Source: Thermodesulfovibrionia bacterium
GTDB lineage: Bacteria > Nitrospirota > Thermodesulfovibrionia > UBA6902
Reading direction: 5' to 3'
Length of the DNA stretch: 64,000 nt
Assembly (NCBI GenBank): GCA_020053105.1
Contig: JAGVNU010000084.1
Coordinates: 65,133 to 129,132, forward strand
In this document: positions 12,195 to 49,965 of the stretch, in pieces
Position numbering within the stretch: position 1 is the stretch's first letter
Layout: each line of letters begins with the position of its first letter
Made by a program: the position numbers and the translations under genes
Notes under the pieces: model-generated
The model's database searches: none
Seen by the model: only the letters and a program-made list of their open reading frames with translations
Told to the model about the DNA's origin: nothing

Positions 12195-12342
12195 GAGTCA
12201 AACTGTCTCTTTGGACTGTGGTTAAAACGGCTCTATATGAATAGGGGAATTTGTTGGACTGGTTTAAAACGCTAAAATGAAGACTTGGCTCTTATGCCTT
12301 TCTCCGTTAAGCATTAAAGGCAATTGAACTGCGTGCGCCAAT

Positions 12343-12774
12343 ATGGTAACTTATATTACCGTGCTAAATCAGAAGAAAAAAAATCACAAGGCAATTAGAT
12401 TCATTGATTTATTTTGTGGCATTGGTGGATTTCGCTCTGCTATTGAGCAAGCTGCTGATGAATTAGGAATACCCGTTAAATGCAAGTTCTCCAGTGATAT
12501 AGACGAAGATTGCCAGAAAGCTTATGAAGCAAACTTCAGAGAAAGACCCCTCGGAGATATTACAGCAATCAACGCCGAAGACATACCAGACCATGACATT
12601 CTTCTCGCTGGTTTTCCATGTCAGCCTTTCAGCATCATTGGACACAGACATGGATTTAAGGACACTCGAGGAACGCTTTTCTTTGACATTGCCCGCATAA
12701 TTGAAACAAAAAAACCGACTGCATTTTTATTGGAGAACGTTAAGCTGTTAGACTCATATAAAATTGCTGCTTGA
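12343..12774 (+). pseudogene. truncated DNA (cytosine-5) methyltransferase; motifs I-VI only
   Basis: Motif I FIDLFCGIGGF, motif IV GFPCQPFS and motif VI LLENVKLL are followed at once by DSYKIAA-stop. Motifs VIII-X and the target-recognition domain are absent. Confidence 0.8.
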
Positions 12775-18261: not shown

Positions 18262-19578
18262 CTAACGACCGGCAGACCGTGTTCCGTTGCCAAACACCCG
18301 CTTGTAAATATAATCCACATGCTTTGTATAGAACTTGAAATCAAAGAGGTCATCTATATCTTTGGCAGACAGGTATTTGGTTATCGATGGTTCTTTTTTA
18401 AGAAGGTCCCTGAAAGGCTTTCTCTCTTTCCAGCTCTCCATCGCGGTCTTCTGGACGAGGCTGTAAGCATCCTCCCTGCTCATCCTGTTTTCCGTCAGTT
18501 TTAGAAGGACCCGCTGGGAACAGTAAAGGCCGTAGCTCCTGCCGATGTTTTCCTTCATCCTCTCGGGGTAGACCTGAAGGCCCCTGAGAATTCCCGTCAT
18601 CCTCACGAGCATGTAATTGATCAGGACCGTGCTGTCGGGAATGATGATCCTCTCAACAGATGAATGACTGATGTCGCGTTCATGCCATAAGGGAATATTC
18701 TCCATGGCAGCCATTGCATTGGAGCGCACTACCCTGGAAAGCCCGCTGAGGTTTTCGCTGCCGACGGGATTACGTTTATGCGGCATTGCGGAGGAACCCT
18801 TCTGTCCTTTTTCAAACGGCTCCTCTGCTTCGAGCACTTCGGTCCTCTGAAGGTGCCGGACCTCAACTGACATCTTTTCAATCGCCCCGGCAATGAGCGC
18901 AAGGGTGTTCATGTATTCGGCATGCCTGTCCCTTTGAATGACTTGTGTAACTACGGGATCGGGCTTAAGACCGAGCTTTTTACACACATATTTTTCTATG
19001 GACGTGGGGAGACTTGAAAAAGTCCCGACCGGGCCTGAGAGCTGTCCGTAGCTGATTGTCTCACGGGCTGTCTTCATCCTCACAAGGTTTCGCTTCATCT
19101 CCTCATACCAGAGCGCGAAGGTCAGTCCGAATGTAGTGGGTTCCGCATGAATGCCGTGGCTCCTGCCCATCTGCAGCGTGTCTTTATATTTAAAGGCATT
19201 GGATTTTAAGACCTTCATCAGCTCCTGAATGTTACTTATTATTATGTCTGCCGCTTCCTTCATCAAAAGGGCCAGGGCAGTATCACCTATGTCTGAAGAT
19301 GTCAGGCCCTTATGGATATAACGTGAATCAGGGCCCACATTCTCGGCAACAGAAGTCAGGAATGCAATGACATCGTGTTTGACTGTCTGCTCTATTTCAT
19401 CTATACGATTGATATTGAATTTGGCCCTTTTCCTGATTGTATCGAGACTCTTTTTCGGTATTTCACCCAATTGGGCCCATGCCTCGCATGCCGCGATCTC
19501 AACATCGAGCCATTTGCGGAATTTGTTTTCCGGCTCCCATATCTTTGCCATCTCAGGCCTTGAATAACGTGGTATCAA
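18262..19578 (-). CDS. purB: adenylosuccinate lyase
   Basis: MIPRYSRPEM start and the fumarate-lyase signature GSSAMPHKRNP. Confidence 0.95.
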   Translation of the reverse strand: MIPRYSRPEMAKIWEPENKFRKWLDVEIAACEAWAQLGEIPKKSLDTIRKRAKFNINRIDEIEQTVKHDVIAFLTSVAENVGPDSRYIHKGLTSSDIGDTALALLMKEAADIIISNIQELMKVLKSNAFKYKDTLQMGRSHGIHAEPTTFGLTFALWYEEMKRNLVRMKTARETISYGQLSGPVGTFSSLPTSIEKYVCKKLGLKPDPVVTQVIQRDRHAEYMNTLALIAGAIEKMSVEVRHLQRTEVLEAEEPFEKGQKGSSAMPHKRNPVGSENLSGLSRVVRSNAMAAMENIPLWHERDISHSSVERIIIPDSTVLINYMLVRMTGILRGLQVYPERMKENIGRSYGLYCSQRVLLKLTENRMSREDAYSLVQKTAMESWKERKPFRDLLKKEPSITKYLSAKDIDDLFDFKFYTKHVDYIYKRVFGNGTRSAGR

Positions 19579-31229: not shown

Positions 31230-32693
31230 CTAAAAAAGATCTATCTGCACAGTATTGTCCTGCCGTGTAAGGACCGGATAATTGTCATTAAAGCATGCAG
31301 TGCAGTATTTCTCCGGGGTCGGCACCACCTTTAATAATCCGTCCAAGCTTAAGTAACAAAGGCTATCGGCTGTTATATATTTTCTTATTTCATCAACAGT
31401 GTGGGTTGAAGCTATCAGCTCTTTTCTTGTGGGAGTGTCGATCCCGTAAAAACAGGGTCCGATGGTCGGAGGTGAACTGATCCTCATGTGGACTTCCTTT
31501 GCGCCCCCGCCTTCCCTGATCATCTTGACGATTTTCTTGCTTGTGGTCCCTCTTACAATAGAGTCATCCACTACCACTACCCGTTTGCCTTCAAGGATCT
31601 GACGAATGGGATTCAATTTGATCTTCACGCCGAAATGCCTGATAGACTGCCTCGGTTCAATAAAGGTACGGCCCACATAATGGTTTCTTATCAGGCCCTG
31701 GTCAAAAGGAATGCCGCTCTCTTCCGCAAACCCGAGCGCTGCCGGCACCCCTGAATCAGGCACGGCGATAACCAGGTCCGCGTCGACCGGATATTCTCTT
31801 GCCAGTTGCCGGCCGAACTCTTTTCTTTTTGTATTGACATTACGGTTCCCGAATATATTGCTGTCCGGCCTTGCAAAGTATATAAATTCAAAGACGCAGA
31901 ACGCATGTCTATGGGAAGGAAGCGTCCTGATATGATGCAGGCCGTCTTTATTTATAATCACCATCTCCCCTGGCTCAACGTCCCGGACATATTTTGCGCC
32001 GATGAGGTCAAAGGCGCAGGTCTCAGACGCAACGATATAGGCGCCGTCATATTTCCCGATACTCAGGGGCCTGAATCCGAAGGGGTCTCTGACGGCAATA
32101 AGTTCATCCTCGCTCATCAGCAACAAACTGTATGCGCCGGAAAGACTCTTCATCGTATCAATGATACGTTCGTGCAATCCCCCGGCCCTGGAGTTTGCGA
32201 TCAGATGGACGATCACTTCGCTGTCCGCAGTAGACTGGAAAATGGCGCCCTGTGACTCAAGCTCATTTTTCAGTTCAAAGGCATTGACAAGGTTTCCGTT
32301 ATGGGCAATCGCAAGAGAGCCCAATGAGAAATTAACCATTAAAGGCTGAACATTTTTCAGGGAACTCGTCCCAGCGGTTGAATAGCGGTTATGCCCGATA
32401 GCAATATTCCCTGGCAGTCTTTTCAGTCTTTTTTCAGAAAAAATATCAGCGACAAGCCCCATGGATTTCTCCACATAGACCTGCTTGCCGTCTGAAGAGC
32501 ATATGCCGGCGCCCTCCTGACCCCGGTGCTGAAGGGCATGAAGTCCCAGATAGGTAAGATTTGAGGCCTCAGGATGGCCGAACACCCCGAACACCCCGCA
32601 TTCGTCGTGGAATTTATCCGCCGATAATGATGCATAGGGGAGCTGCCCCGGCTTGATGCTTTTAATGAGTTTACTTATATTGCGCAATGACAT
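31230..32693 (-). CDS. purF: amidophosphoribosyltransferase
   Basis: N-terminal nucleophile CGVFGVFG and the PRPP loop [13 protein letters not shown]. Confidence 0.95.
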
Positions 32694-32884
32694 GCCCGAA
32701 ACTGATAGTATTCATTCGAATCATAGTATAACATTTATACTTACACAAAATTCCAACTCAAATATTATGTTAAGGCGCTATTTTCTATTCACTATTTTAC
32801 GCCTTATTTTCTTGAACTTTAAGGCTGTTTGGGTTAAGATTAACCGATTGATTTTTTAAGGGGAAATGCACATTCCAAAACAAC

Positions 32885-35800
32885 ATGCTGCTTGATAACA
32901 AAACAAAAAAAGTAGATAACGAGCACTCGACAGTATACGACTTCCTGCGTAACTACATTGAGCATGGAAAGGTCGATATGGTTACCGGCTATTTTTCAGT
33001 CAGCGCACTTGCCAGAATAAAGGATGAGATGAATGGTCCTGAAAGATTTCGCATGGTTCTTGGCAATTTACTTAAAGAAGATAATCAGCAGGACAAGGTC
33101 ATAAATCTTCTAAGTGACTCATTAGGTATTGCTCAAGTATTGAATCTCAATCAGTCGGCTAAAAGGGCAGTTGATTTTCTGAGGCAGGAAAAAGTACAGG
33201 TCAAAACCATTCAACGAAACTTCTGCCATGCAAAGACCTATATGTACCATGATCCGGACCCGCGGAAGAATTTCCATATTGTCGGGAGTTCCAACTTGAC
33301 TGATGCAGGACTTGGAATCAGAGAGTCCGGCAATATTGAGTTAAATTCAGCAAGCACGGGGAATGATAATGATTTCAGGGAACTGACTACCTGGTTTAAG
33401 GATCTGTGGTCGAGTAACGATGCATTAACAACAATTGAACTACCTGATAAGTCAAAAGTCAGTGTGAAAGAACATATCATAAATATTATTCAGAACCTGT
33501 ATAGGAAATACACCCCATATGAACTTTATTACAAGGTGCTTTATGAACTATTCAAAGATGACTTACTATCGCTTTCTCTTGATCCAGAATTTAAAAAAGA
33601 GATATCTCATTTAGAAGATACTCTTATTTATAAGATTCTTTATTCCTTCCAGAAGACAGGAGTAATCAGCCTTATCAAAATGCTTCAAAAAAATAACGGA
33701 GCAATTCTGGCTGATGCAGTGGGATTAGGCAAGACATGGACGGCGCTGGCTGTCATGAAGTATTTTAAAATGAAAGGTTTCAGAGTTATCTTGTTATGTC
33801 CGAAGAAGCTGGATGCCAACTGGAGACAATATCTTGAAGGACATCGCTCAAAATTTGAGAGAGACAGGCTAAAGTACACGATCCGTTATCATACTGATCT
33901 GCAGGATGATAGATTAGAGTCGTATCAGGACGGGTATAAGATAAATACTTTTTTTCAGGGCAATCCCAAGCTTTTAGTTGTAATTGATGAGAGTCATAAT
34001 CTGCGGAATGATAAATCATCCCGCTATAAATTCCTCGTTGATAATATCTTTACCCGGAATAAAGAAGTAAAAGTATTGCAGCTTTCTGCAACACCAATAA
34101 ACAATAAACTGATTGATGTCAGAAACCAGTTTAAATTAATGGTAAAGGGTCAGGATAATGGTTTTAAAGAGACATCGCTGGAGATAGGCAGTCTTGAGAG
34201 CATATTCCGGACGGCTCAGAAAGATTTTAAAACATGGCAAGACAAGGACAATAGAAAGATCAGCGATTTTATCCAGATGCTTCCTCAGAAATTCTTTTCG
34301 CTTACTGATGCATTGATCGTTGCCAGAACCAGGAAACTGATTGTAGGTGAATTTGGCGGCCTGTCCTTCCCCAAAAAAGAAGATCCTGAGAATGAATATA
34401 TTAATCCTGAAAACATTGGTAACTTAAAGACCTTTGAGGAACTATTACACGCAATCGAATCGATTAACCTCATTGCATATATGCCACATAAATATATAGA
34501 GAAAATAGCACCAGAAAGCGTATTGAAAGACGAGGTCCAGCGTGAGGGTTTTCTGGTAAAGATGATGTACATTCTCTTGATGAAGCGTCTTGAATCAAGC
34601 TGGCATTCATTCAATAATACAGTAAATAATATTTATGACCATCACACTAACGCTTTGAAGAAAGTTAATAATTTTAAAGATAGAAAAGAAGATACTTGTC
34701 TTGAAGATGAAATATCAGAGCAAGATAATTTCGAGGATGATCTTGAGGAAACTTCTTCCGAATTTACAGGTGCTGATGATGAAACAGAACAGCTTGAGGA
34801 ATTTACTCTTGGGAAAAAGAACCCTATCAATCTTTCAGATATCAGGTACATTGATATGTTTAAGAGGCATCTTGAAGATGATATTGCCCGGTTGGAGAAA
34901 CTTAAATCAAATCTGGATATATTTGAGCAGAATCTGAAAGAGAAAAAAATAAAAGATATTAAATTGGAAAGACTTGTTGAACATATTGAGAAGAAAAGGA
35001 GAGCGCGCGAAAACCAGAAAGTCATTGTCTTTACAGTCTTCACAGATACAGCACAGTATTTATATGAACAGTTAATTGATAAAGGATTTTCAGGAATTGC
35101 TTATGTGTCAGGCTCACAGTCTGCAACCAGTTACGGCTATAGCGGTAAAAATTTCGAAGGGATATTAGAGCGCTTTGCTCCATATACCAAATTGTACAAG
35201 GAAAAAGACTGGAACTATTTATATGAAGAAAAAGGCATCCTGGAGCCGGAGAGTTTTGGAGATTGGAAAGATATCATAAGAAAGCATGATCCTGAGACGT
35301 TGAGGAAATTAGAAGAGCCCTTAGACATTTTGATAGCTACAGACTGTTTAAGTGAAGGCCAGAACCTGCAGGATTGCGACTGTGTGATCAACTACGATAT
35401 ACACTGGAACCCTGTGAGGATCATTCAGCGAATGGGACGTATAGACCGTCTCGGCTCACCCAATCAAACCATCAAAGGCATAAATTTCTGGCCGGGGAAA
35501 AATTATGAAGATTACCTCAGGCTCAAGACAAGGGTAGAAAACCGGATGGCAGCTATGTCTGTTGTTGGTGCAGAGATAGACGAGAAAATGACCCCGGAAA
35601 TCGAAAAGATGGTTAAAGACAATCCCATAGTCACAAGACAGACAGAGAAAATGCTCAATCAAATGCAGTTTACCTGGGAGGATGTTGAGACCAGTGATGA
35701 AAGTCTGGGGCTGAATGACTTGTCTCTGGAGCAGTTCAGGCAGGAACTGTTCGATATTTTCCAGAAGAACAAAGAGTTATTTGAGAAAATGCCCAACGGT

Positions 35801-36244
35801 ATTTTTACCGGCTTCCAGGCGGAACCGGATAAAAAATATACTGAATTGCCGGAGGGAATTATTGCATTACTGGGTTATCCTAAAAAGCCTGATGACGCTG
35901 ACATGCATAAATATAATGAATATCATCTGCTGTATTCTCATGCGAAAGGATTTTCTACCTACAATAATAATCAGGAAATATTAAGCATATTAAGAAAGCA
36001 TAAAAACAAAATCAGGCTCGTCCCTGATGATGTTGAAAATGGCGATAAGGAAGCCCTGCAATGGTTAAGCGACAGGATAAAAGCATGGATTGAAGGGCAG
36101 GTGCCTCAAAAAGCTATTGATGAAATTCAGGGGATTTTTGCTAATGGTGTGCCTAAAAAGAAATCACCTGAAGATAAGAAACTTGATGATAAGTTTAAGC
36201 CGGACAATTTTGATTTAATCACATGGTTTGTCGTGTCGGAGTGA
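32885..36244 (+). CDS. PLD-family (single HKD) nuclease domain fused to an SNF2-family helicase/translocase
   Basis: HKD motif FCHAKTYMY...HIVGSSNLTDAG (nt 33227-33304). Helicase motif I is LADAVGLGKTW, II is VIDESHNLRN, III is LSATPINN, and the C-lobe is LIATDCLSEGQNLQDC...NPVRIIQRMGRIDRLGS. Confidence 0.85.
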   Translation: MLLDNKTKKVDNEHSTVYDFLRNYIEHGKVDMVTGYFSVSALARIKDEMNGPERFRMVLGNLLKEDNQQDKVINLLSDSLGIAQVLNLNQSAKRAVDFLRQEKVQVKTIQRNFCHAKTYMYHDPDPRKNFHIVGSSNLTDAGLGIRESGNIELNSASTGNDNDFRELTTWFKDLWSSNDALTTIELPDKSKVSVKEHIINIIQNLYRKYTPYELYYKVLYELFKDDLLSLSLDPEFKKEISHLEDTLIYKILYSFQKTGVISLIKMLQKNNGAILADAVGLGKTWTALAVMKYFKMKGFRVILLCPKKLDANWRQYLEGHRSKFERDRLKYTIRYHTDLQDDRLESYQDGYKINTFFQGNPKLLVVIDESHNLRNDKSSRYKFLVDNIFTRNKEVKVLQLSATPINNKLIDVRNQFKLMVKGQDNGFKETSLEIGSLESIFRTAQKDFKTWQDKDNRKISDFIQMLPQKFFSLTDALIVARTRKLIVGEFGGLSFPKKEDPENEYINPENIGNLKTFEELLHAIESINLIAYMPHKYIEKIAPESVLKDEVQREGFLVKMMYILLMKRLESSWHSFNNTVNNIYDHHTNALKKVNNFKDRKEDTCLEDEISEQDNFEDDLEETSSEFTGADDETEQLEEFTLGKKNPINLSDIRYIDMFKRHLEDDIARLEKLKSNLDIFEQNLKEKKIKDIKLERLVEHIEKKRRARENQKVIVFTVFTDTAQYLYEQLIDKGFSGIAYVSGSQSATSYGYSGKNFEGILERFAPYTKLYKEKDWNYLYEEKGILEPESFGDWKDIIRKHDPETLRKLEEPLDILIATDCLSEGQNLQDCDCVINYDIHWNPVRIIQRMGRIDRLGSPNQTIKGINFWPGKNYEDYLRLKTRVENRMAAMSVVGAEIDEKMTPEIEKMVKDNPIVTRQTEKMLNQMQFTWEDVETSDESLGLNDLSLEQFRQELFDIFQKNKELFEKMPNGIFTGFQAEPDKKYTELPEGIIALLGYPKKPDDADMHKYNEYHLLYSHAKGFSTYNNNQEILSILRKHKNKIRLVPDDVENGDKEALQWLSDRIKAWIEGQVPQKAIDEIQGIFANGVPKKKSPEDKKLDDKFKPDNFDLITWFVVSE

Positions 36245-36274
36245 TATAGATCGTGAGAAAAATTAGGGTTAACT

Positions 36275-37735
36275 GTGAAATATAAAATTTTCATCAGCAG
36301 CGTCCAAAAAGAGTTTGCGCAGCAGCGTCTGGATTTGAAGGCCTTTTTGCTTGGTGATGCTGTGTTGCGGCGTTTCGTTTCCGAGGTATTCCTGTTCGAG
36401 GAAATTCCGGCAAAAGACCGTCGCGCTGATCAGCTCTATCTGGAAGAAGTAGAACGCTGCGACATATACCTCGGCCTCTTTGGTTATGAATATGGAAATG
36501 AAGACACGCAGGGCGTGTCCGCAACGGAACGTGAATATATCCATGCAACCCGGCTCGGCAAGACCCGGTTGATTTATGTCTGGGGAGCTGACGAAAAAAA
36601 GCGCGCAGCCAAGATGAAAAAGCTGGTCAGCAAGGCCGGCAGTGCCCTGATCCGCCGTCGTATTGAAGACGGGAGCGCCCTTACCGTAGAGGTCTACGCC
36701 AGTCTTGTTGACTATCTCGATACTAACGGTGCGCTGCGTGTCCCACCGTTCGATACTGCCGCTTGTCATGGGGCCGGACTGAAAGACATCTCCCGAAAAC
36801 GTATCGAATGGTTCCTTGAGGCAGCCCGCCGCGAGCGAGGCTTCCCCCTCAAATCCAATACAACAACAAAGGCCTTGCTCACTCATCTCAACCTTCTCGA
36901 TGAAGGGAAACCGACCAATGCCGCCATAATGCTGTTCGGGATAAATCCCCAGCGCTTTCATCGTACCGCCGAAACCAAGTGCATCCACTGTCATGGCACG
37001 GAATACCGTCGTCCCTTTGCTTCCATGCAGGTGTATGGCGGAGATCTCTTTGAACAGGCTGATGAGACGCAGGATTTCATACTGGGCAAGATCAATCGCT
37101 CAATCGGTACCCGCGCTGTGAGCATCACTGCGCCAGCTACATACGAACTCCCCACTGATGCCATTGCGGAGGCTGTCATCAATGCTATTGCGCATCGCGA
37201 TTATCATAGTAATGCATCTGTTGAAGTCCGCCTGTTTGCGGACCGCCTTGAGGTCTGGAACCCCGGCACTCTGCCCGGTACGCTGACGCTCGACGCTCTG
37301 CGTGATGATCATCCTTCGGTGCCGCACAACCCCTTGATTGCCGAGTCGCTCTACCTGACGCGCTATATCGAAAGGGTTGGTTCCGGCACTCAGACGATGA
37401 TTGAGCTCTTCAGAGAAGCTGGACTGCCGGAACCTCAATTCGAGCAACGGAACGGCTCATTTGTCACTACCCTCTGGCGCGACTGGCTGACAGATAAGAT
37501 ATTGGCTGAGCTTGATCTTAATGAGCGACAAATAAAGGCCCTTCCGGTGATCCGGCAACAGCGGCATTTAACCAATAGCGAATACCAAACCATAACCGGA
37601 GCAACGCGACCAACAGCGAAACGAGATCTTGAAGAACTTGTAAGAAAAGGTGTGGTTGTCCCAAAGGGTAGCGGCAGGGGAGCTCGCTACGAGTTATTTA
37701 AGAAACGGCTCATTAATGGTTCAAATGGATCATAA
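36275..37735 (+). CDS. DUF4062-like N-terminal domain fused to a COG2865-type (HATPase_c_4-like) module and a C-terminal wHTH
   Basis: GTG start. KIFISSVQKEFAQQR...CDIYLGLFGYEYG is DUF4062-like. AIAEAVINAIAHRDY...LEVWNPG is HATPase_c_4-like. LTNSEYQTITGATRPTAKRDLEELVRKG is a wHTH. Confidence 0.7.
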   Translation: MKYKIFISSVQKEFAQQRLDLKAFLLGDAVLRRFVSEVFLFEEIPAKDRRADQLYLEEVERCDIYLGLFGYEYGNEDTQGVSATEREYIHATRLGKTRLIYVWGADEKKRAAKMKKLVSKAGSALIRRRIEDGSALTVEVYASLVDYLDTNGALRVPPFDTAACHGAGLKDISRKRIEWFLEAARRERGFPLKSNTTTKALLTHLNLLDEGKPTNAAIMLFGINPQRFHRTAETKCIHCHGTEYRRPFASMQVYGGDLFEQADETQDFILGKINRSIGTRAVSITAPATYELPTDAIAEAVINAIAHRDYHSNASVEVRLFADRLEVWNPGTLPGTLTLDALRDDHPSVPHNPLIAESLYLTRYIERVGSGTQTMIELFREAGLPEPQFEQRNGSFVTTLWRDWLTDKILAELDLNERQIKALPVIRQQRHLTNSEYQTITGATRPTAKRDLEELVRKGVVVPKGSGRGARYELFKKRLINGSNGS

Positions 37736-37877
37736 GCGGGTGGTGATAGAATGGCTCATAAATGGCTCAAATGGTTCACTGGTAACCCGTCACAAACCCG
37801 TCAAATCTGTCACGAAAAGGGCGTGGACATAGGGACGTTTTTAAATACGCCATAATGACGCCAAATAAAAAAGACCA

Positions 37878-40800
37878 ATGATAAACCTGACCATATTCAA
37901 CAACAACATCTTTGACGCAGGCACTGAGTTTTTCAGCCAGCTTGGCATACGCCTGAACAGCAATACCGCCGTCTCATTAGGGTCAAGAGAGCTATTAAAA
38001 GACCATTATAAAGACAAAGATATTTTCAATGCCATTACAGAAACATATTTTCTGGGCCTTGTGGATGACTCGGTTTTTGAGGGAAACGCCCCCCTTTTGG
38101 GCAAGAAGAAAATCTCTCTCAAAGAAGCGGAAAACAGGATCGATCCGGAATATAAGGGGTTGATGGTCTTTGCTGTAAAGCTGAACGATTCTTACCTTCC
38201 TGTTAGAGGTAAGATAGCCGAACTCACAAGGGCGTTTAACAGGGTAAGCAAAAGTGTTCCGGTTGTACTGCTTCTCAAATATGGCGGTCTGCTTTCCTTT
38301 GCTGCTTCTGAAAGGACTAAATATAAACAGGCATGGAGAGATGGAGAAAAGATAGGGAAGATTTCTCTCCTTAAAGATATTAATCTTAAGTCCCCTCATA
38401 CCGGCCATTTAAAGATACTTTATGATTTAAAGGTTAAGGCTGATGTAAACACCTTTGATGCCCTTTATAAGCAGTGGCAGGAGGTGTTTAATGTTCAACT
38501 GCTGAATAAGAAGTTTTTCAGGGAACTTGCTGACTGGTATTTCTGGGCAATACAGAATGTTGAATTTCCCGATGATGCTGAAAAAGACAAGGCTGTCAGG
38601 AATGCAATAAATGTGATCCGGTTAATCACTCGGATAATATTTGTATGGTTTTTAAAAGAAAAAGATTTGGTGCCCGATTCATTGTTCATCAAAAGCCGTA
38701 TAGACAATATTCTCAACTATACGGATAAAACCGGCTCTACATTTTACAAGGCAATCCTGCAGAATTTGTTTTTCGCCACTCTCAATACTGAAATGAACAA
38801 GGACAAGCCCGGAAACCGTATCTTTGTAAACAGGCAATATGGGATAACAAATCTTTACCGGTATGAGAGGTTTTTTAAAGACAAAGATAAGGCATTGGCA
38901 TTATTTAAAAACATTCCATTTCTTAACGGCGGTCTCTTTGAATGTCTTGACAAGGATTTATCCCCCACTTTGGAAAAGGGGGGTGAGGGGGGATTTTCCA
39001 ATAAAAAGACAATCCGCATTGATTGTTTTTCAAACAGAAGAGATAATGAAACACGCCTCACCGTGCCGGACCATTTATTTTTCAATCCCGAAGGCCGGAT
39101 AGTTGATCTTAGCGATGTATATGGAGACAAGAAAAGGAAAAGCGAAAAGGTCAGAGGCCTTATCGACATCCTCGACAGCTATAAATTCACCGTCGATGAA
39201 AATACACCTATTGAAGAGGAAATCGCGCTTGACCCTGAATTATTGGGCAAGGTATTTGAAAATCTTCTGGCAAGTTATAACCCTGAGACCCAGACCACAG
39301 CACGGAAGCAGACAGGATCTTTCTACACACCGAGAGAGATCGTCAATTATATGGTCGATGAATCGTTGATTGCGTATTTGACCACAACCCTTGAGCGTCA
39401 TTCCCGCGAAGGCGGGAATCCAGAGGAACTGGATGCCCGATTAAAAACTTCGGGCATGACGGAAAAGAAGAACAACGATTCCCGTCTTCGCCACCTCGTC
39501 GCATACAATGACGACCCGCATAAATTCACCCCGGTTGAGGTTGATATTCTCATTGCAGCAATCAATACACTGAAGGCCCTCGACCCTGCATGCGGTTCCG
39601 GGGCCTTTCCGATGGGAATGCTTCATAAGCTGGTTTACATCCTTGGCAAGCTTGATCCTGATAATTCAAAATGGCGCGAGCTACAGAAGCAAAAGGCGAT
39701 CAGGGAGACAGAAGAAGCCTACAATATCGGCGACAAGGAAGAGCGTAACAAGCGCCTTCAGGATATAAGTGAGGTTTTTGAAAACAATGCCTCTGATTAT
39801 GGAAGGAAGCTTTATCTTATTGAGAACTGCATCTTCGGCGTTGACATTCAGCCGATAGCAGTGCAGATCGCGAAGCTGAGGTTTTTTGTGTCGCTGATAG
39901 TTGACCAGCGGATCAACCCCAAAAAAGAAAACCTCGGTGTGCGGCCCTTGCCTAATCTTGAGACGAAGTTTGTGGCGGCAAATACGCTGATTGGGATTGA
40001 TAAGCCGAAGTTTATGACATTGGGATTAAGAAATCTCAATATTGACATAAAGGAAAAAGAGCTTAAGCAAGTGAGAGAAAAACACTTCTCTGCAAGGACG
40101 CCTAAAACCAAGGAGAAATACCGGAATGAAGATGCCAGACTCAGAGCAGAATTAGCAGAACTTTTTAAAAACGACGGATTCAGCGCCGAGACAACTCACA
40201 AGTTATCCGAATGGAACCCTTATGACCAGAATGCCCATGCCGATTTTTTTGATCCCGAATGGATGTTCGGCGAAAAGAACGGATTTGACATCTCCATCGG
40301 CAATCCGCCTTATGTGAGGGCTGATTCGGGCCTTGAGCATTTGGCTCTGCGCCAATCTATTATCGAAAGCAAGCAATACGAAACTCTCTGGGAGAAGTGG
40401 GACCTATTTGTTCCCTTCATTGAGTATGGTTACAAGCTTTTAAAACCGGGCGGTATAACCACGATGATAGTGTCCGACGCCTATTGCCATTCCAAGTACG
40501 CACAAAAATCTCAAAAGTGGTTTCTGCAAAACAGCAGGATTTTACGCCTGGACTTTTTGAGCAAGATAAAGGTATTCGAGGCTGGTGTTCATAACATTGT
40601 CTATTTCTTCCAGAAAGCTGAAGGCAGTGGCAACAAGCCGGAGCGGCGGGAACATGAGGATGAGTTTGGAAAGGTGAAGGTATTGCCGACAGATGAGCAG
40701 CGGAATCTTACGTATCGGGCATTCTTCCCTCAGGAACAAGGGGAAAATATTAGTGGCATACCGTTAGAAGAAATATGTTATATCACTTATGGTTTAAGGC

Positions 40801-41525
40801 CAAGCAGCGATGAGCATGAAGCAAAAGGGGAGTTTGTTACCGCTGATCTGGTATCTGAAAAGAAAGATAGTATTCATTGTAAACCTTATGTTGAAGGGAA
40901 ACATCTTAACAATTGGTATCGCGGTACGCATCTTTGGATTGAATGGGGTACTAAACGCGCACCAGCACTTTTTTGCCGTCCTACATTCCCTGAACTTTAT
41001 ATAATCAAAGAGAAGCTTCTTGCACAAAGAAGTCCTGGTCCCGATCCGGTGGCGTGTTATGACGATGAAAAACTTGTATTTACACCTGCCAGTGTTGGCT
41101 TCATCCCTTGGCATGACTTGGCAGGAGTTCGCAATAATTCACTGAAAAAGGCGGCTCGTTACCGTGGCGAACGTCCTGTTCGTCATGACATGCCGAAACG
41201 TGAAGAGTTGGAAGTCACAAGCAAACGCTTTGAGGTTAAGTACCTACTTGCGGTGATGAACTCGACAGTGGCGCGTGATTTTCTGCGGGCAAATCGTCGG
41301 AGCAATATTCACCTCTACCCTGACGACTGGAAGAAACTGCCTATTTCCGATGTCTCGCAGGAGAAGCAGAAGCCGATTGTGGCATTAGTCGACCAAATCC
41401 TCGCCTCCAAAAAGAAAGACCCCAACGCCGACACCTCCGCCCTCGAAAAACAGATCGACGAAATGGTCTATGCCCTCTACGGCCTCACGCCGGAGGAGAT
41501 TGCGATTGTGGAGGGGAAGGGATGA
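37878..41525 (+). CDS. Eco57I/PglX-type gamma-class N6-adenine DNA methyltransferase with TaqI_C-like specificity domain (1215 aa)
   Basis: GSFYTPREIV (motif X), LDPACGSGAF (motif I, nt 39579-39608), NPPY (nt 40302-40313), FLNGGLFE, and a C-terminal TRD ending in the typical YALYGLTPEEIAIVEG. Confidence 0.85.
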   Translation: MINLTIFNNNIFDAGTEFFSQLGIRLNSNTAVSLGSRELLKDHYKDKDIFNAITETYFLGLVDDSVFEGNAPLLGKKKISLKEAENRIDPEYKGLMVFAVKLNDSYLPVRGKIAELTRAFNRVSKSVPVVLLLKYGGLLSFAASERTKYKQAWRDGEKIGKISLLKDINLKSPHTGHLKILYDLKVKADVNTFDALYKQWQEVFNVQLLNKKFFRELADWYFWAIQNVEFPDDAEKDKAVRNAINVIRLITRIIFVWFLKEKDLVPDSLFIKSRIDNILNYTDKTGSTFYKAILQNLFFATLNTEMNKDKPGNRIFVNRQYGITNLYRYERFFKDKDKALALFKNIPFLNGGLFECLDKDLSPTLEKGGEGGFSNKKTIRIDCFSNRRDNETRLTVPDHLFFNPEGRIVDLSDVYGDKKRKSEKVRGLIDILDSYKFTVDENTPIEEEIALDPELLGKVFENLLASYNPETQTTARKQTGSFYTPREIVNYMVDESLIAYLTTTLERHSREGGNPEELDARLKTSGMTEKKNNDSRLRHLVAYNDDPHKFTPVEVDILIAAINTLKALDPACGSGAFPMGMLHKLVYILGKLDPDNSKWRELQKQKAIRETEEAYNIGDKEERNKRLQDISEVFENNASDYGRKLYLIENCIFGVDIQPIAVQIAKLRFFVSLIVDQRINPKKENLGVRPLPNLETKFVAANTLIGIDKPKFMTLGLRNLNIDIKEKELKQVREKHFSARTPKTKEKYRNEDARLRAELAELFKNDGFSAETTHKLSEWNPYDQNAHADFFDPEWMFGEKNGFDISIGNPPYVRADSGLEHLALRQSIIESKQYETLWEKWDLFVPFIEYGYKLLKPGGITTMIVSDAYCHSKYAQKSQKWFLQNSRILRLDFLSKIKVFEAGVHNIVYFFQKAEGSGNKPERREHEDEFGKVKVLPTDEQRNLTYRAFFPQEQGENISGIPLEEICYITYGLRPSSDEHEAKGEFVTADLVSEKKDSIHCKPYVEGKHLNNWYRGTHLWIEWGTKRAPALFCRPTFPELYIIKEKLLAQRSPGPDPVACYDDEKLVFTPASVGFIPWHDLAGVRNNSLKKAARYRGERPVRHDMPKREELEVTSKRFEVKYLLAVMNSTVARDFLRANRRSNIHLYPDDWKKLPISDVSQEKQKPIVALVDQILASKKKDPNADTSALEKQIDEMVYALYGLTPEEIAIVEGKG
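38961..38997. repeat. C-tract/G-tract miniature element embedded in frame in the methyltransferase CDS
   Basis: tcccccactttggaaaaggggggtgaggggggatttt encodes SPTLEKGGEGGF directly after the conserved FLNGGLFE motif. CCCCC/GGGGG can pair. Confidence 0.45.
39397..39460. repeat. 64-nt palindromic MITE/REP-like element embedded in frame in the methyltransferase CDS
   Basis: GTCATTCCCGCGAAGGCGGGAATCCAG-aggaa-CTGGATGCCCGATTAAAAACTTCGGGCATGAC. It has GTCAT/ATGAC termini, a central TCCAG/CTGGA stem, and two internal hairpins. Confidence 0.55.
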
Positions 41526-41536
41526 ACAAATCAAAC

Positions 41537-44500
41537 CTACTTGTTATTATCGCACCATTCACTGGCATTCTGAAACATCCTAAGCCAGGGCGACGCTTGT
41601 GAGGACGCATTGCCATATGCCCCTACATTCTCCGGCATCCACGGCCATTGCCATTTGAGAAAGGTCCTTTCAGGATGAGGCATTACAGCAAGATGCCGCC
41701 CATCAGGGGAGCAAAGTGCTGCGATCCCGTTGGCCGATCCATTCGGATTGAACGGATATTTCATGGTGATCTCATTACTGTCATCTACGTAGCGGACGGG
41801 TGCGAGATTTTCTGCCTCTATTCTTTTTAAAATATTTTCATCCGGGAAATATGCCCGGCCTTCGCCATGCGCGACCCATATGCCGAGGGCGGAACCTTCC
41901 ATGCCCTTCAGCATTATCGCGGGACTCTGCAATATCCTGACTGTAGAAAAGCGGGACTCAAACCGTCCGGACACATTGTGAATGAACCTCGGCTGGATGC
42001 TGTTTTCAATGCCCTGCCACGGTACCCATCCAAGCAGGGCCATAAGCTGACATCCGTTGCAGACGCCAAGGCTGAAGGTGTCTTTTCTGTTATAAAATTT
42101 CCGGAATTCATCCCATATTTTATTATTGAACCTGATGACCCCGGCCCAGCCCTTTGCAGAGTCCAGTACGTCCGCGTAACTGAACCCGCCGACAAATGCA
42201 AGCCCGCTAAAACCGGCAAGCGAGACCCTGTCCTCAAGAAAATCGGTCATCGTTACATCCCAGGGCTCAAACCCTGCCTGATAAAAAGCAGCCGTCATCT
42301 CCCTGTCGCTGTTGCTGCCTTCTTCACGGATGATCGCAACCTTCGGCTGGGCAGGCATGTGGGGACGGGGTTTGGTCTCTTCCGGTTCAAAAGTCAAAAC
42401 GTATTCAGGTCCCTTCCTGTCAAAAATATTTATTTTCTCTTCTTCAACGCATTCAGGATTTGCCTGCAGGCGCTCAAGCTGATAACTCGTTTCTTCCCAG
42501 ATGCTTCTAAGAGCGGGCATGTCTTCATCGAGCAAAGTGAGAAGTGAGGCGTCAGAAGTGAGAAGTTTAACTGAAATTCTTTTTTCGGATAATGTTTTAC
42601 CGATGATATCGTAAGGGACAGAGGAATTCTTTAGAACGGAAATAATATCATCCTCTTTCTCCGGTAAATATTCTATCACCATGCCGAGTTCTTCGGAGAA
42701 GAGTAGGGGCAATTCATGCCTGTGCCCTTCAGGGTAAATTGCCTCTGCGGATGAAATGTCTACATCCATTCCGCAATTCCCTGCAAAGGCCATTTCAAGG
42801 AGAGTTGTGATCAACCCCCCATCGCTTCTGTCATGACCCGAGAGAATCAGGTCTTTGTCGATCAGCGCCTGCACTGCAGTGAATGTTCTTTTTAACAACT
42901 CCGGATCATCAACATCCGGGGATTCATCACCCGTCTGATTATATACCTGGGCCAGTGCGCTTCCGCCGAGGCGGTTTTTCCCTGTGCCCAGATCAATAAG
43001 AATGAGTTTGCTCTGTCCCGGTCTTTTAATATCAGGGGTAATTACCTTTTTAATATCAGGACAGGTCGCATAAGCGGATATAACAAGTGTACCTGGGGAT
43101 TTCACAGTTTCGGAGTTGCCCGATGCGTCCCTTACCTGGGTCGCCATTGACAGGCTGTCCTTTCCGCCGTCAATAGCTATATCGAGTTTGATTAATATAT
43201 CGCTGAGCGCAACCGCCGCGTCATACAGCTTCGCTCCTTCTCCGGGGAGCTTCGCGGCCCACATCCAGTTGCCGGAACACTTGATGTCCTCCAGGGAACT
43301 GATCCTGGCCCAGACTATATTGGTTAATGCCTCGCCAACACAGAGGCGAGCCATGGCTGCCGGATCTATCAATGTCTTTACCGGCTGCTCTCCGATAGAT
43401 ATAGCTGCACCGGTCAATCCAAAATGACTTTGGCCGATCACTGCCACATCTGAAACAGTAAGCTGTAACGGCCCGGCACACTGTTGTCTCGCAATCAATC
43501 CGGTGACGCTCCTGTCAACTTTATTGGTAAGAAACCTCTTTGATCCAACCGAGAGCAGACGTAACACCCTGTCAAGGGCCGCTCTTACGGTTAATCCTTC
43601 GGGTAATTTTAACGGACTGGGTTTAAGCCGGATGCGGTCAAGGTGAAAGGTCTTCTGAGGCATTTCGCCTAATATTTTGCCAAGGTCCAAATTGACCGGA
43701 GTGCTCCCGTCGGTTTCGTCATAAAGCACTGCAAATCCGTCTCCTGTAATAACACCGATAACGGCAAAAGGGACCTTTTCGCGCAGACACATTTCCCTGA
43801 ATATCTCAATATGCTCCTTTTTCAAAAGCAGCGCATTCTGCTCCTGATACTCGGCGCCCCATATCTCAAGGACTGAAAGCGTGTTATCGCCAAGCTGGAT
43901 CTTTCTTACCTCGATCTTTGCCCCGGCAGGATAAATGATCTCCTTCACAACATTGCAGTTCCCCCCCGCGCCCTGATCATGGATACTGACAACAGGATTC
44001 TCACTGCCCAATTCAACACAGGCGCGCAGGACCCTGTTCATCTTCTGCTCCATCTCGGCGTCACCGCGCTGTACTGCGTTAAAATCAAGCTCAGCAACAT
44101 TTTCACCCTGGATCATGCTTGACGCAGCCCCGCCGCCGATGCCTATCCTGTATGCCGGGCCCCCGATCTTGACAACCAGCATCCCTTCTTCAGGTTCACC
44201 TTTCTTTATATGCGTCGCGTCCATCTGGCCGATGCCTGCGGTAAACATTATCGGCTTGAGCCATTCATACCGCTCCCCGTCAGGCAGTCTCATTCCGAAT
44301 GAACGGGTATATCCCTGGATAACAGGCTCACCGAATTTATTTCCGTAGTCAGACGCCCCGTTACTTGCCTGGACCTCGATATCGAGAGGGGAAGCAAGGT
44401 TGGGTGGATATTTAAATGATTTGTCTTCCCACGGGAGTTCATAACCGGGGATGTGAAGATTCCCTACACAGTAAGCGGCAGTCCCTGCAATGACCAGCCC

Positions 44501-45562
44501 GCCCCTGCCTGTGGCCTCGACATCCCTTATCCTCCCGCCGGTGCCGGTTTCAGCCCCTGGAAACGGTGCGACCCCGCTCGGAAAATTATGGGTCTCTGCA
44601 GTAAAGATAACATCATACATCCGCTTGGCCTTTTTATAAGCTGCCGGCGCGAGGTGATTATCCGGAATGATCGTATTAATTTCATATCCCCGGATCGAAC
44701 TGGAATTGTCCTTGAATGCAATGACGCTGTTTGCAGGGTTTGCCTTGAGGGGTTTCTGGATTATCCTGATAAGATCATCCGGAACTTCTTTGCCGTCAAC
44801 TATCAGCCGGCCTTTAAAAAACCAGTGCCTTGAATGTTCGCTGTTTGACTGGCTCAGATCAAAGCATTCCACATTGGTAGGATTTCTGCCGATGTCATTG
44901 ACAAAGAGGTTATAGTAATAATCAATGTCCCAGGCGTCAAGCCCTAGCCCCATTGCCTTATTGATTTTTTCGAGCGCTGCTTTCCCTTCTTCTTTAAGCC
45001 GTATTTCAACCACCGGTTCGGGTTTGGTCCCGGTCTCAAATGTTGTCAGCGGCTCCGGATATTGGCACTCTGTCATCCGGTCATAAAACAGTGATGAGTG
45101 ATGAGTGATGAGTGACTGGCAAAAATCTTCCTTCTGCTTATTGCCGAATGATTCATCTTTACTGAATGTAAATTTATACCTGCGGGACCTTTCAATTCGA
45201 GTAATCTTTTTAAGCCCGCATGCGTGACATACCGATACAGCGTTTGCGGACCATGCAGTAGTAAAGTTCATGCGTGGACCGACTTCGAGAATTATACCGG
45301 GCACGGCGCGCCGCGCCCCTGCGGGGACATCTGCCAAAAAACTATGCTCAGAGAAATTCTCCGGTTCAAATGTCTCGGAAAGCAGCCAGCGGAGGATGAC
45401 CATTTCTTCCTGCTCTACCGGGCCGGCCGTCTCTATGTTAAAGCAGTATTCGGTTTCAATTTCTTCAACTGCTGACGAAATCCTCTGCCTGACAATCGCG
45501 AGCAGTTCATTTTGCTGTGCTCCTGATAAGGCAGGGGCTCTGTAAAAGTGCATCAAGGCCAT
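41537..45562 (-). CDS. purL: phosphoribosylformylglycinamidine synthase, single-chain large form
   Basis: Collinear with the large FGAM synthase: SNSEHSRHWFF, ETHNFPS, DRSDGGL, and the C-terminal glutaminase GVCNGCQ...HGEGR. Confidence 0.95.
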   Translation of the reverse strand: MALMHFYRAPALSGAQQNELLAIVRQRISSAVEEIETEYCFNIETAGPVEQEEMVILRWLLSETFEPENFSEHSFLADVPAGARRAVPGIILEVGPRMNFTTAWSANAVSVCHACGLKKITRIERSRRYKFTFSKDESFGNKQKEDFCQSLITHHSSLFYDRMTECQYPEPLTTFETGTKPEPVVEIRLKEEGKAALEKINKAMGLGLDAWDIDYYYNLFVNDIGRNPTNVECFDLSQSNSEHSRHWFFKGRLIVDGKEVPDDLIRIIQKPLKANPANSVIAFKDNSSSIRGYEINTIIPDNHLAPAAYKKAKRMYDVIFTAETHNFPSGVAPFPGAETGTGGRIRDVEATGRGGLVIAGTAAYCVGNLHIPGYELPWEDKSFKYPPNLASPLDIEVQASNGASDYGNKFGEPVIQGYTRSFGMRLPDGERYEWLKPIMFTAGIGQMDATHIKKGEPEEGMLVVKIGGPAYRIGIGGGAASSMIQGENVAELDFNAVQRGDAEMEQKMNRVLRACVELGSENPVVSIHDQGAGGNCNVVKEIIYPAGAKIEVRKIQLGDNTLSVLEIWGAEYQEQNALLLKKEHIEIFREMCLREKVPFAVIGVITGDGFAVLYDETDGSTPVNLDLGKILGEMPQKTFHLDRIRLKPSPLKLPEGLTVRAALDRVLRLLSVGSKRFLTNKVDRSVTGLIARQQCAGPLQLTVSDVAVIGQSHFGLTGAAISIGEQPVKTLIDPAAMARLCVGEALTNIVWARISSLEDIKCSGNWMWAAKLPGEGAKLYDAAVALSDILIKLDIAIDGGKDSLSMATQVRDASGNSETVKSPGTLVISAYATCPDIKKVITPDIKRPGQSKLILIDLGTGKNRLGGSALAQVYNQTGDESPDVDDPELLKRTFTAVQALIDKDLILSGHDRSDGGLITTLLEMAFAGNCGMDVDISSAEAIYPEGHRHELPLLFSEELGMVIEYLPEKEDDIISVLKNSSVPYDIIGKTLSEKRISVKLLTSDASLLTLLDEDMPALRSIWEETSYQLERLQANPECVEEEKINIFDRKGPEYVLTFEPEETKPRPHMPAQPKVAIIREEGSNSDREMTAAFYQAGFEPWDVTMTDFLEDRVSLAGFSGLAFVGGFSYADVLDSAKGWAGVIRFNNKIWDEFRKFYNRKDTFSLGVCNGCQLMALLGWVPWQGIENSIQPRFIHNVSGRFESRFSTVRILQSPAIMLKGMEGSALGIWVAHGEGRAYFPDENILKRIEAENLAPVRYVDDSNEITMKYPFNPNGSANGIAALCSPDGRHLAVMPHPERTFLKWQWPWMPENVGAYGNASSQASPWLRMFQNASEWCDNNK
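42709..42749. repeat. REP-like hairpin element lying in frame inside purL
   Basis: gcaattcatgcctgtgcccttcagggtaaattgcctctgcg. It matches 20708-20748 and encodes AEAIYPEGHRHEL on the coding strand. Confidence 0.55.
45091..45116. repeat. heptanucleotide tandem repeat (gtgatga x3 plus gtgac) inside purL
   Basis: Read directly from the sequence. It encodes SLITHHSSL on the minus strand. Confidence 0.8.
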
Positions 45563-48960: not shown

Positions 48961-49965
48961 ATGTTATATAAAATTATATTTTTCCTCGTATTTGTAGCGG
49001 GCGGATATGCTATAGGAATAAGAGAGGGCCTGAATTATCAGGGACTCATATGGGGCGCGGGAGTCGGGATTATTGCATTGGCCCTGGAGTATGTATTAAC
49101 GATGGTGGGTTTCGGCACAGTGCTTGGGGGATTGGCCGGATTATCGATCGGGCTTTTATTCGCCAAGTTAATCTATTTACCGCTAAAGACAATTTTCACC
49201 AGCATGGACGGGACCTATATCGGCGTTATCTTTAATACAGTATTCGGCTACAGCGGCCTGCTCCTGGGGTTGCGGGCAGGGAAGGACTTTACCATATCGA
49301 GCATTATCAAGGCCTTCAAAAGCAGGGTGGAAGAGGGATATGCCAAGGTCATTGATACCAGTGTAATAATAGACGGCAGGATAGTGGATGTCTGCGAGGC
49401 GGGCTTTATTGAAGGCACTTTCATTATCCCCCAGTTTATACTGCAGGAGCTCCAGCATATCGCGGATTCAGCGGACTCCCTGAGGAGGGCCCGTGGTAGA
49501 AGGGGCCTGGACATCCTGCACAAGATCCAGAAGATGAACAATATCACCGTAAAAATAGTTGATGAAGATTTCCCGAAGATAAAGGAAGTGGACGCCAAAC
49601 TGGTGGCATTGGCCAGGCTGATAGGAGCCAAGATTATAACCAATGACTTTAATCTTAACAAGGTCGCCGAGCTTCAGGGGGTGACCGTGTTAAATCTCAA
49701 TGAGCTTGCAAACGCATTGAAGCCCGTCGTGCTGCCCGGAGAGACGATGAATATCTTTATATCCAAAGAAGGCAAGGAATCAAATCAGGGGGTGGGTTAT
49801 CTGGATGACGGGACGATGGTTGTAGTAGATAACGCGAGGAAGAAAATAAATCAGCAGCTGGACGTGGTTGTTACAAGTGTCCTGCAGACAACAGCAGGGC
49901 GAATGATATTTGCGAAGCTCAAGGAAGAAGCAGACAGGGAAGAACGTCAGATGGCCCGGCATTAA
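48961..49965 (+). CDS. membrane-anchored PIN and TRAM domain protein (YacL-like)
   Basis: N-terminal TM helices, PIN VIDTSVIIDGR...TNDFNL, and a C-terminal TRAM VVVTSVLQTTAGRMIFAKL. Confidence 0.8.
   Translation: MLYKIIFFLVFVAGGYAIGIREGLNYQGLIWGAGVGIIALALEYVLTMVGFGTVLGGLAGLSIGLLFAKLIYLPLKTIFTSMDGTYIGVIFNTVFGYSGLLLGLRAGKDFTISSIIKAFKSRVEEGYAKVIDTSVIIDGRIVDVCEAGFIEGTFIIPQFILQELQHIADSADSLRRARGRRGLDILHKIQKMNNITVKIVDEDFPKIKEVDAKLVALARLIGAKIITNDFNLNKVAELQGVTVLNLNELANALKPVVLPGETMNIFISKEGKESNQGVGYLDDGTMVVVDNARKKINQQLDVVVTSVLQTTAGRMIFAKLKEEADREERQMARH

Follow-up and report, generated by a model that had tools for sequence, protein, structure and literature searches.

A putative two-gene restriction-modification-like system with a nested, predicted DUF4062 NADase gene between purL and purF of a Thermodesulfovibrionia bacterium

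Three plus-strand genes lie between the minus-strand purine biosynthesis genes purF and purL in a 64,000-nt stretch of DNA (hereafter the window) from a Thermodesulfovibrionia bacterium (contig JAGVNU010000084.1, positions 65,133 to 129,132). They encode a PLD nuclease fused to an SNF2 ATPase (PLD-SNF2), a DUF4062-HATPase_c_4-winged helix-turn-helix (wHTH) protein, referred to here as the middle protein, and a large N6-adenine methyltransferase. Do these genes form one defence system, or more than one? The answer that we consider reasonably probable is that the cassette contains two nested defence units, namely a two-gene, ATP-dependent system resembling restriction-modification (R-M) and a separately mobile NADase gene.

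An insertion at purL-purF with a conserved gene pair

A preliminary description of the window, made from its letters alone, had claimed that a cassette splits purL from purF. The open reading frame (ORF) list agrees exactly with the layout it gave, including the 11 nt between the methyltransferase stop and the purL stop, and a comparison of purL-purF loci in relatives confirms the split. In the contig L086, found like the other empty sites by a metagenome scan with purF as query, purF comes straight after purL on the same strand, with a gap of 75 nt (purF 94% and purL 91% identical). In about 20 further relatives, with purF 76-83% identical, the two genes are also adjacent and 60-180 nt apart. 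Since purL and purF are directly adjacent in close relatives, the three-gene block is an insertion of ~8.8 kb. In the alignment with L086, homology ends at the purL coding end, the final purL codons differing at the junction, and restarts at window position 32736, which is 43 nt upstream of the purF start. Both flanking genes pass their NCBIfam equivalog cutoffs.

The mosaic composition that had been suggested from spot counts is also seen over whole genes, with a G+C content of 0.385 for the PLD-SNF2 gene, 0.524 for the middle gene and 0.444 for the methyltransferase gene compared to 0.49-0.50 for purF and purL. No target-site duplication, integrase, nearby tRNA or long flanking repeat was found at the insert, in agreement with the preliminary description, and Rfam gave no match within it. 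The block is a real, cleanly bounded and horizontally acquired insertion of predicted defence genes.

The neighbourhoods of the PLD-SNF2 gene were surveyed in 80 loci examined among at least 594 found (one genome per species), with flanks of up to 10 kb; all ORFs of at least 150 aa were clustered by similarity, and only some neighbour families were scanned with Pfam. Where a locus extends far enough downstream, the PLD-SNF2 gene is in nearly all cases followed immediately by a methyltransferase homologue on the same strand, and the surveyed loci span Bacteroidota, Cyanobacteriota, Chloroflexota, Verrucomicrobiota, Poribacteria and others. The clustering returned only two universal families, PLD-SNF2 (82 loci) and the methyltransferase (73 loci), and no universal third gene. 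The next families are that of HATPase_c_4 proteins, to which the middle protein belongs (15 loci), DUF1016/YhcG (11 loci) and an SMC/AAA_23-like ATPase encoded downstream of the methylase (11 loci). Furthermore, the closest PLD-SNF2 relative, 95% identical and found in a Nitrospirae metagenome-assembled genome (L001), lacks the middle gene, with an ATGA overlap between its outer genes. The expectation that all three genes would be co-conserved was thus not borne out, and the conserved core is probably the PLD-SNF2 and methyltransferase pair, the three genes not being one obligate system. Among 52 intact pairs, the Spearman correlation of PLD-SNF2 similarity with methylase similarity is 0.84 for methylase residues 1-90 and 0.63 for residues 91-430, falling to 0.23 for the catalytic core and 0.12 for the C-terminal region.

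Between the two core genes lies a variable slot, from a few nt to 4.5 kb in length and empty in about half of the loci, whose contents form 16 clusters. According to Pfam, the slot proteins include AlbA_2-HATPase_c_4-wHTH, DUF4062-HATPase_c_4-wHTH, DUF1016/YhcG, Abi_2, Fic and Bro-N proteins, and Schlafen-type genes also occur there. Genes of the kinds that Pfam identified are classic embedded genes of type I R-M operons. The middle gene of the window belongs to the commonest slot family as its DUF4062 variant, with the DUF4062 domain in the place held by AlbA_2 in relatives; its homologues are found in the slot in the window, L002-L006, L069 and L075. The features of the locus are collected in Table 1.

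Table 1. Features at the purL-purF locus, in window coordinates
Feature	Position	Strand	Remarks
purF (amidophosphoribosyltransferase)	31230..32693	-	left flank; TIGR01134, 552 bits (cutoff 350)
Inserted block, ~8.8 kb	~32737..41540	.	from the junction alignment with the empty-site contig L086
Promoter-like site	32740..32768	+	left insert edge, upstream of the PLD-SNF2 gene; consensus scan, 9/12 matches
PLD-SNF2 gene	32885..36244	+	1119 aa; single-HKD PLD nuclease and SNF2 ATPase; predicted restriction/motor subunit
Variable slot between core genes	36245..37877	+	here a 1.63-kb unit of higher G+C
Middle gene	36275..37735	+	486 aa, GTG start; DUF4062-HATPase_c_4-wHTH; DIP2311-like body
Repeat array, ~4 modules of 29 nt	37704..37870	+	overlaps the middle-gene stop codon; repeats D1, D2, D3
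Methyltransferase gene	37878..41525	+	1215 aa; Eco57I/PglX-like gamma-class N6-adenine methyltransferase
purL (large single-chain FGAM synthase)	41537..45562	-	right flank; TIGR01735, 1710 bits

The middle gene and its repeat modules

The middle protein carries a DUF4062 domain (PF13271) at aa 4-91 (E 3e-19, 69.4 bits against a cutoff of 24.7) and an HATPase_c_4 domain at aa 314-400 (E 3.5e-23), followed by a DIP2311-like C-terminal wHTH that is matched below threshold (E 1.6e-4, 22.3 bits against a cutoff of 27). Pfam detected no AlbA_2 domain in it. According to the accessible portions of two preprints, DUF4062 is a TIR-like NADase domain with a catalytic Glu, and single genes that combine it with variable auxiliary regions give abortive-infection defence (Swarozyc, bioRxiv 10.64898/2026.05.01.722283; Evangelion, bioRxiv 10.64898/2026.06.25.731849). 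In the window protein and its relatives a TEREY motif (aa 84-88) has invariant E85 and E87, and E87 is retained even in homologues of 48-55% identity, so that both marks of a DUF4062 NADase-type defence protein, the domain and a conserved catalytic Glu, are present. The AlphaFold2 (AF2) model is poor (predicted local distance difference test score, pLDDT, 61.6), and only the domains at the N- and C-terminus and the DIP2311 match are usable. Foldseek searches with this poor model match the body to DIP2311 (3lmm, E 2e-7), the N-terminus to nucleoside deoxyribosyltransferases and TIR-STING (E ~5e-4) and the C-terminus to ArsR/MarR-type wHTH proteins.

As far as the accessible portions of the preprints describe them, Swarozyc and Evangelion resemble the middle protein in the N-terminal DUF4062 with its conserved Glu-aromatic motif, in the variable C-terminal auxiliary region with a wHTH, and in their horizontal spread and defence neighbourhoods. 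Unlike them, the window protein has its DUF4062 and wHTH separated by a DIP2311-like, Schlafen-associated body of ~300 aa that includes HATPase_c_4; its gene is nested in an R-M operon and followed by triple-repeat modules, features that those portions do not describe.

The relatives of this gene are not confined to cassettes of this kind. Homologues of 74-87% identity occur in Thermodesulfovibrionales, Betaproteobacteria, Verrucomicrobiales, Methylomirabilis and Nitrospira, and they are closer than the copy in related cassettes. One stands alone after carB, beside a SIR2_2 gene (L166), and another is carried on a conjugative element with TraG, ArdC, SSB and primase (L172), the two being 79-85% identical to the window protein; over standalone and type III R-M contexts the identity is 77-85%. 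Judged by its sequence and distribution, the middle gene is a separately mobile, predicted DUF4062 NADase gene in a cargo slot. It would most likely act as a single-gene abortive-infection system, depleting NAD+ in response to a phage cue perceived by its C-terminal module.

The 29-nt modules make up the 142-nt spacer that precedes the methylase gene as well as the 3' end of the middle gene. Each module contains three copies of a 9-mer (AAxxxxxCA) whose starts are 11 and 9 nt apart, and the 5-nt cores are specific to the module. Modules follow close homologues in every context, where strict detection finds 5.7 per kb compared to 0.157 per kb in the same loci, and they accompany the middle gene even without a methylase downstream. 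The first module of the window is translated as the protein tail LINGSNGS, and it is because of this translation that database homologues end in tandem tripeptides (NGSNGS, NAPNAP, NPSNPS, KGSKGS, NRTNRT and KGPKGP). The last ~80 aa, comprising the wHTH and tail, act as a swapped cassette: homologues that are 92-95% identical over aa 1-405 are just 44-51% identical there, and those with an NGS tail are 74-79% identical over this stretch. The cores of the downstream modules equal the tail cores of other homologues, and these modules look like a stack of replaced cassettes. They may serve as operators for the wHTH or as substrates for cassette exchange, both being candidate roles.

In more distant slot proteins (L061, L064, L069 and L075), the linker that leads directly to the C-terminal wHTH contains three to four tandem copies of a 4-residue peptide (APVT, LESG, QPES, QPVT), which perhaps reflect the same phenomenon of repeats at a cassette boundary.

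The paired proteins, their proposed mechanism and known systems

In the PLD-SNF2 protein, Pfam identifies PLDc_2 at aa 61-175 (32.5 bits against a cutoff of 27), SNF2-rel_dom at 255-416 and Helicase_C at 804-857, the latter two also above cutoff. The HxK...D and GSxN elements that define the PLD (HKD) superfamily occur in a single copy (FCHAKTYMYHD...GSSN, aa 113-137), with residues invariant in 16 homologues. SNF2 motifs I, II and VI are all present (GLGKT at 280, DESH at 368 and QRMGRIDR at 848). In the 16-sequence alignment the mean column identity is 76% and the catalytic motifs are invariant. The best PADLOC match is C3a139 'HKD+Snf2' (E 3e-80), a model that originated in a survey of accessory genes of type III CRISPR systems (PMC6546367), and HKD domains fused to SNF2 ATPases in R-M systems have been noted by Aravind and colleagues (PMC3417536). 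There are thousands of full-length relatives, of which the best 120 are 58-95% identical and come from several phyla, including Nitrospirota, Desulfobacterota, Bacteroidota and Ignavibacteria. Distant homologues, mostly ~30% identical, were found on 116 plasmids, for example in Enterococcus, Listeria, Bacillus, Escherichia and Acinetobacter. On one of these (L177, Acinetobacter sp. NEB149 pMsp65, 6998-12583), a ~30%-identical PLD-SNF2 gene lies beside a DUF4391 gene and a gene for a 537-aa 'site-specific DNA-methyltransferase', not an Eco57I-like methylase; a literature search for DUF4391 found no name. PDB sequence searches gave generic SNF2 and TaqI/BseCI matches only. Looking up the window's proteins by exact sequence gave no match, and neither did P0241, a 100%-identical record of the middle gene on a 138-kb JGI contig.

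The methyltransferase has an N-terminal domain (aa 1-430), a catalytic core (~440-920) and a variable C-terminal recognition region (921-1215). Eco57I is matched at aa 650-900 (E 8.5e-31), N6_Mtase is also matched, and the motifs DPACGSG (aa 569) and NPPY (aa 809) are both intact. TaqI_C gives a weak match in the window protein (E 0.092) and is carried by homologues, among which the C-terminal region is hypervariable. The domain inventory of the preliminary description therefore stood for PLD, SNF2, DUF4062, HATPase_c_4 and Eco57I, and for the wHTH below threshold, but AlbA_2 was undetected and its TaqI_C-like recognition domain is weakly matched. The N-terminal domain belongs to a family of 1,240 clusters at 50% identity (E<=1e-10) with few conserved acidic residues (E145, E157 and D167), and in at least three lineages (L179, L045 and L071) it is a separate ORF.

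In the locus L179 (Microcoleus CP181292.1, 4583-13578), and also in L045 and L071, this ~500-aa domain ORF lies between PLD-SNF2 and a shorter methylase. An SMC_N/AAA_23 ATPase gene comes next after the shorter methylase in such loci, and it recurs downstream of the methylase in 11/80 loci. Databases also hold many ~500-aa proteins that consist of the N-terminal domain alone. In L001 (13357-16274) the methylase has an internal deletion that removes aa 494-1112, including both catalytic motifs, and a separate 29-aa fragment is 100% identical to the C-terminus of the window methylase; L001 looks like a decaying copy of the system. Programmed inversions have been reported for related genes (PMC9881135). 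These do not apply here, since neither inversion-type repeats nor spare recognition-domain cassettes were found near the methylase.

For the two outer genes, the most reasonable reading is that the methylase marks self DNA and PLD-SNF2 restricts unmarked DNA, as in the working model of the preliminary description. The remainder of that model, in which the middle protein is the sensor or regulator of the system, does not agree with the independent occurrence of the middle gene. In the proposed mechanism, the methyltransferase would recognise a short, probably asymmetric site through its variable C-terminal region and methylate adenine at N6, marking the host DNA. Its conserved N-terminal ~430-aa domain may be an adaptor that couples or recruits PLD-SNF2, a coupling for which the ATGA overlap in L001, the correlation gradient along the methylase and the separate N-terminal ORFs speak. 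At unmethylated sites the SNF2 motor would hydrolyse ATP and translocate along the DNA. In PLD nucleases such as Nuc and BfiI, each HKD motif supplies one half of the active site, and because the window protein has a single one, cleavage should need two PLD-SNF2 molecules. These would have to meet on the DNA, following a collision logic as in type I, III and ISP enzymes.

Several known systems resemble parts of this arrangement. Type III R-M systems share with it a two-gene organisation, a methyltransferase with target recognition, a separate superfamily 2 ATPase-nuclease fusion and a predicted ATP-dependent long-range communication, and in some the same NADase gene family is nested between the restriction (R) and modification (M) genes. 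However, their methylase is a beta-class N6_N4_Mtase, whereas here it is gamma-class, Eco57I/PglX-like, 1215 aa long and extended by an N-terminal domain, and they pair a Res helicase with a C-terminal PD-(D/E)xK nuclease instead of an SNF2 motor with an N-terminal single HKD. Type III membership is not supported, as N6_N4_Mtase is matched under cutoff (E 0.0099) and the nuclease is the N-terminal HKD. Type IIG/IIL enzymes (MmeI, Eco57I, Cj0031) and PglX of bacteriophage exclusion (BREX) systems have a similar large gamma-class methylase with a helical spacer, a TaqI_C-type recognition region and the DPACGSG and NPPY motifs. The window methylase has the gamma-class N6-adenine motifs and C-terminal recognition domain that mark type IIG but, unlike those enzymes, no recognisable nuclease domain, and it is paired with a nuclease-motor gene.

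The preliminary description had set the cassette apart from DISARM (defence island system associated with restriction-modification), BREX and type ISP systems, and the defining genes or architecture of all three are indeed missing from the window. Class 1 DISARM (DrmA, DrmB, DrmC, DrmD, DrmMI) resembles the insert in its PLD (DrmC-like), SNF2 (DrmD-like) and large N6-adenine methylase (DrmMI-like) components, but PLD and SNF2 are fused here, the window has no DrmA or DrmB (DUF1998), and Pfam finds three genes only in the insert. The NCBIfam DISARM_DrmD profile reaches 139 bits (cutoff 610), and PADLOC DrmMI matches are partial (E 7e-15). Similarly, BREX was rejected, as the window lacks PglZ, BrxC and BrxL and BREX_1_MTaseX (PglX) scores 52.8 bits (cutoff 500). 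Type ISP enzymes are single polypeptides with an Mrr-type nuclease, whereas here the functions are split over two genes with a PLD nuclease and an SNF2 motor.

A relation to Hma had also been suggested. Hma is the type-1 BREX-related system, centred on a DUF499 ATPase, and its nuclease layout fits type 1 of that class; the type-2 system comprises a DUF499 ATPase, an N6-methyltransferase, an HKD-Snf2 helicase and DUF3780 (PMC12839542). The type-2 system is like the pair in having an HKD nuclease at the N-terminus of an SNF2 helicase, in its pairing with an N6 methylase and in being predicted to be R-M-like. The suggested relation fails on the absence of the DUF499 ATPase: neither DUF499 nor DUF3780 is found in the insert or among the universal neighbours in the 80 loci, and the HmaA profile matches the helicase C lobe only (E 4e-17). 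More generally, none of DrmA, DrmB, PglZ, BrxC, DUF499 and DUF3780 emerges as a partner in the clustered neighbourhoods, which are similarity clusters that were partly Pfam-scanned.

Alternative readings, significance and surroundings

Some points weigh against the reading of two nested units. The gradient of correlation along the methylase could stem from physical linkage and 3' recombination and not from a protein interface. A cryptic nuclease could lie in the N-terminal domain, for which no fold was recognised. No name, structure or experiment was found for the pair in the searchable literature, and a newer formal name may exist. Lastly, in two unrelated R-M classes the middle gene is placed between an R and an M gene, which hints at functional coupling, not mere hitch-hiking.

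This last point leads to an alternative that is possible, though we think it unlikely. PrrC is an abortive-infection effector, an anticodon nuclease, embedded in the EcoprrI type I R-M locus, and the cassette is like that locus in having an abortive-infection effector gene embedded among ATP-dependent R-M genes; unlike it, the effector here is a predicted NADase. The NADase gene might guard the R-M system in a PrrC-like manner, its product being held inactive by the R-M complex or by binding of the wHTH to DNA until phage anti-restriction triggers NAD+ depletion, and the three genes would then be functionally linked as first-line defence and backup. In favour of such a guard, two lineages (L168/L169, 4936-12504; L174-L176, ~4924-11700) have the order res-NADase-mod with a ResIII and RE_endonuc Res and an N6_N4_Mtase Mod, so that homologues lie between the R and M genes of two non-homologous ATP-dependent classes, PLD-SNF2/Eco57I-like and type III Res/Mod. 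In addition, the homologue in L170 directly follows a Res-like gene, and AlbA_2-type relatives hold the same slot at other loci. However, the homologues in L166 and L172 stand alone, the slot holds unrelated cargo too, the sample covers just eight independent contexts, and the DUF4062 systems characterised in the accessible portions of the preprints are single genes that sense phage proteins or replication intermediates. A more far-reaching proposal, tentative and somewhat more doubtful, is that the DUF4062-HATPase_c_4-wHTH family is devoted to guarding ATP-dependent restriction enzymes, inserting between the R and M genes of unrelated classes. It would be kept inactive through the R-M complex or through the wHTH on the 29-nt modules, anti-restriction would lead to NAD+ depletion, and the wHTH and modules would be exchanged as cassettes to retune sensing.

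It is improbable, in our judgement, that the methyltransferase by itself makes up a type IIG enzyme, complete with a nuclease at its N-terminus, and that PLD-SNF2 is an accessory or separate defence gene. The best PADLOC matches of the methyltransferase are REase_MTase_IIG profiles (E 5e-65), some sources label N-terminal fragments 'type II restriction endonuclease', and Milman et al., who found such genes beside PLD+SNF genes, name them Cj0031-like type II R-M enzymes (PMC9881135). Against this, the match of the N-terminal 430 aa to the type IIG profile is limited to aa 202-308, covering the helical spacer at profile positions 200-295, and the first ~200 aa match no profile. Type IIG enzymes carry their nuclease in the first ~200 aa. 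Moreover, the N-terminal domain has no Pfam match, its fairly confident AF2 model (pLDDT 77.5) gave no PDB fold match at E<0.1, and the strict association of the methyltransferase with a motor that bears a nuclease points to nuclease activity being provided in trans.

One obligate three-gene system, with the middle protein as a regulator or sensor that licenses the PLD-SNF2 nuclease, appears quite improbable. The genes do share a strand and are tightly spaced, with gaps of 30 nt between the PLD-SNF2 and middle genes and 142 nt between the middle and methyltransferase genes, and just upstream of where the methyltransferase starts there are the wHTH and repeat modules. The same trio also recurs in another genomic context in BMS3Abin09 and BMS3Bbin08 relatives, whose PLD-SNF2 is 86-88% identical. 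However, the middle gene of these relatives is merely 71-72% identical. In L002 the values are discordant, at 88% for PLD-SNF2 and 72% for the middle gene, and middle-gene homologues elsewhere reach 85-87%. The middle gene is absent from most loci, including the closest relative, and the modules travel with it even where no methylase follows. Hardly probable at all is a non-defence epigenetic or DNA-repair module that would combine an SNF2 remodeller with an orphan methylase: some SNF2 proteins, RapA among them, serve in housekeeping and the pair has no known phenotype, but the cassette is horizontally inserted and patchily distributed, has a nuclease domain and a hypervariable recognition region, holds classic R-M hitch-hiker genes in its slot, and has homologues on 116 plasmids and beside other defence genes.

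The pair is widespread, with at least 594 matches among species-representative genomes, yet it is without a name, structure or experiment in the literature found. Work on its function would close a gap between type III, type ISP, DISARM and BREX-related systems and would test if a single-HKD nuclease on an SNF2 motor cuts on collision only. The nested NADase gene is a new architecture for the newly described DUF4062 defence family. Furthermore, the repeated R-NADase-M placement offers a direct test of layered, guard-type immunity, and the triple-repeat modules with the swapped wHTH cassette could reveal how sensors exchange their specificity. The recurrent R-NADase-M nesting and the 29-nt modules are the most interesting leads from this locus.

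Some observations concern the surroundings of the cassette and its relatives. At the left edge of the insert, the promoter-like site is weak evidence because the promoter and terminator scans as a whole gave no more sites than shuffled sequence. The purL-purF junction as a defence hotspot was rejected. The sole other insert found there, of 3.8 kb (L105, 1713-5556), carries a sigma-54-dependent response regulator, a histidine kinase and a small secreted protein, and with such cargo the site is not a defence-specific hotspot.

In L002-L004, the BMS3Abin09 relatives, the trio follows purH-purD-purE, with genes for a WYL/WCX regulator and a small HIRAN-domain protein ahead of it (L002, 8242-9800), and DUF1016 and OLD-like/UvrD-like genes lie downstream of the cassette. 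The defence islands with the res-NADase-mod order (L168/L169 and L174-L176) also hold AAA_21/DUF4276, UvrD-like and HATPase_c_3/SduA_C genes.

The rest of the window is housekeeping according to Pfam scans of the flanking and larger ORFs, which identified LepA, a ROK kinase, an ABC transporter, an aminotransferase, HtrA, IspD, SecA and others. Further purine genes make the region rich in purine biosynthesis, namely an unusually long SAICAR synthetase-like ORF of 429 aa (16346-17635, plus strand) and adenylosuccinate lyase (18262-19578, minus strand). Elsewhere in the window are a gene for an AAA_14 and DUF4143 ATPase (5113-6333, minus strand) and one for a 334-aa PIN-domain protein (48961-49965, plus strand).

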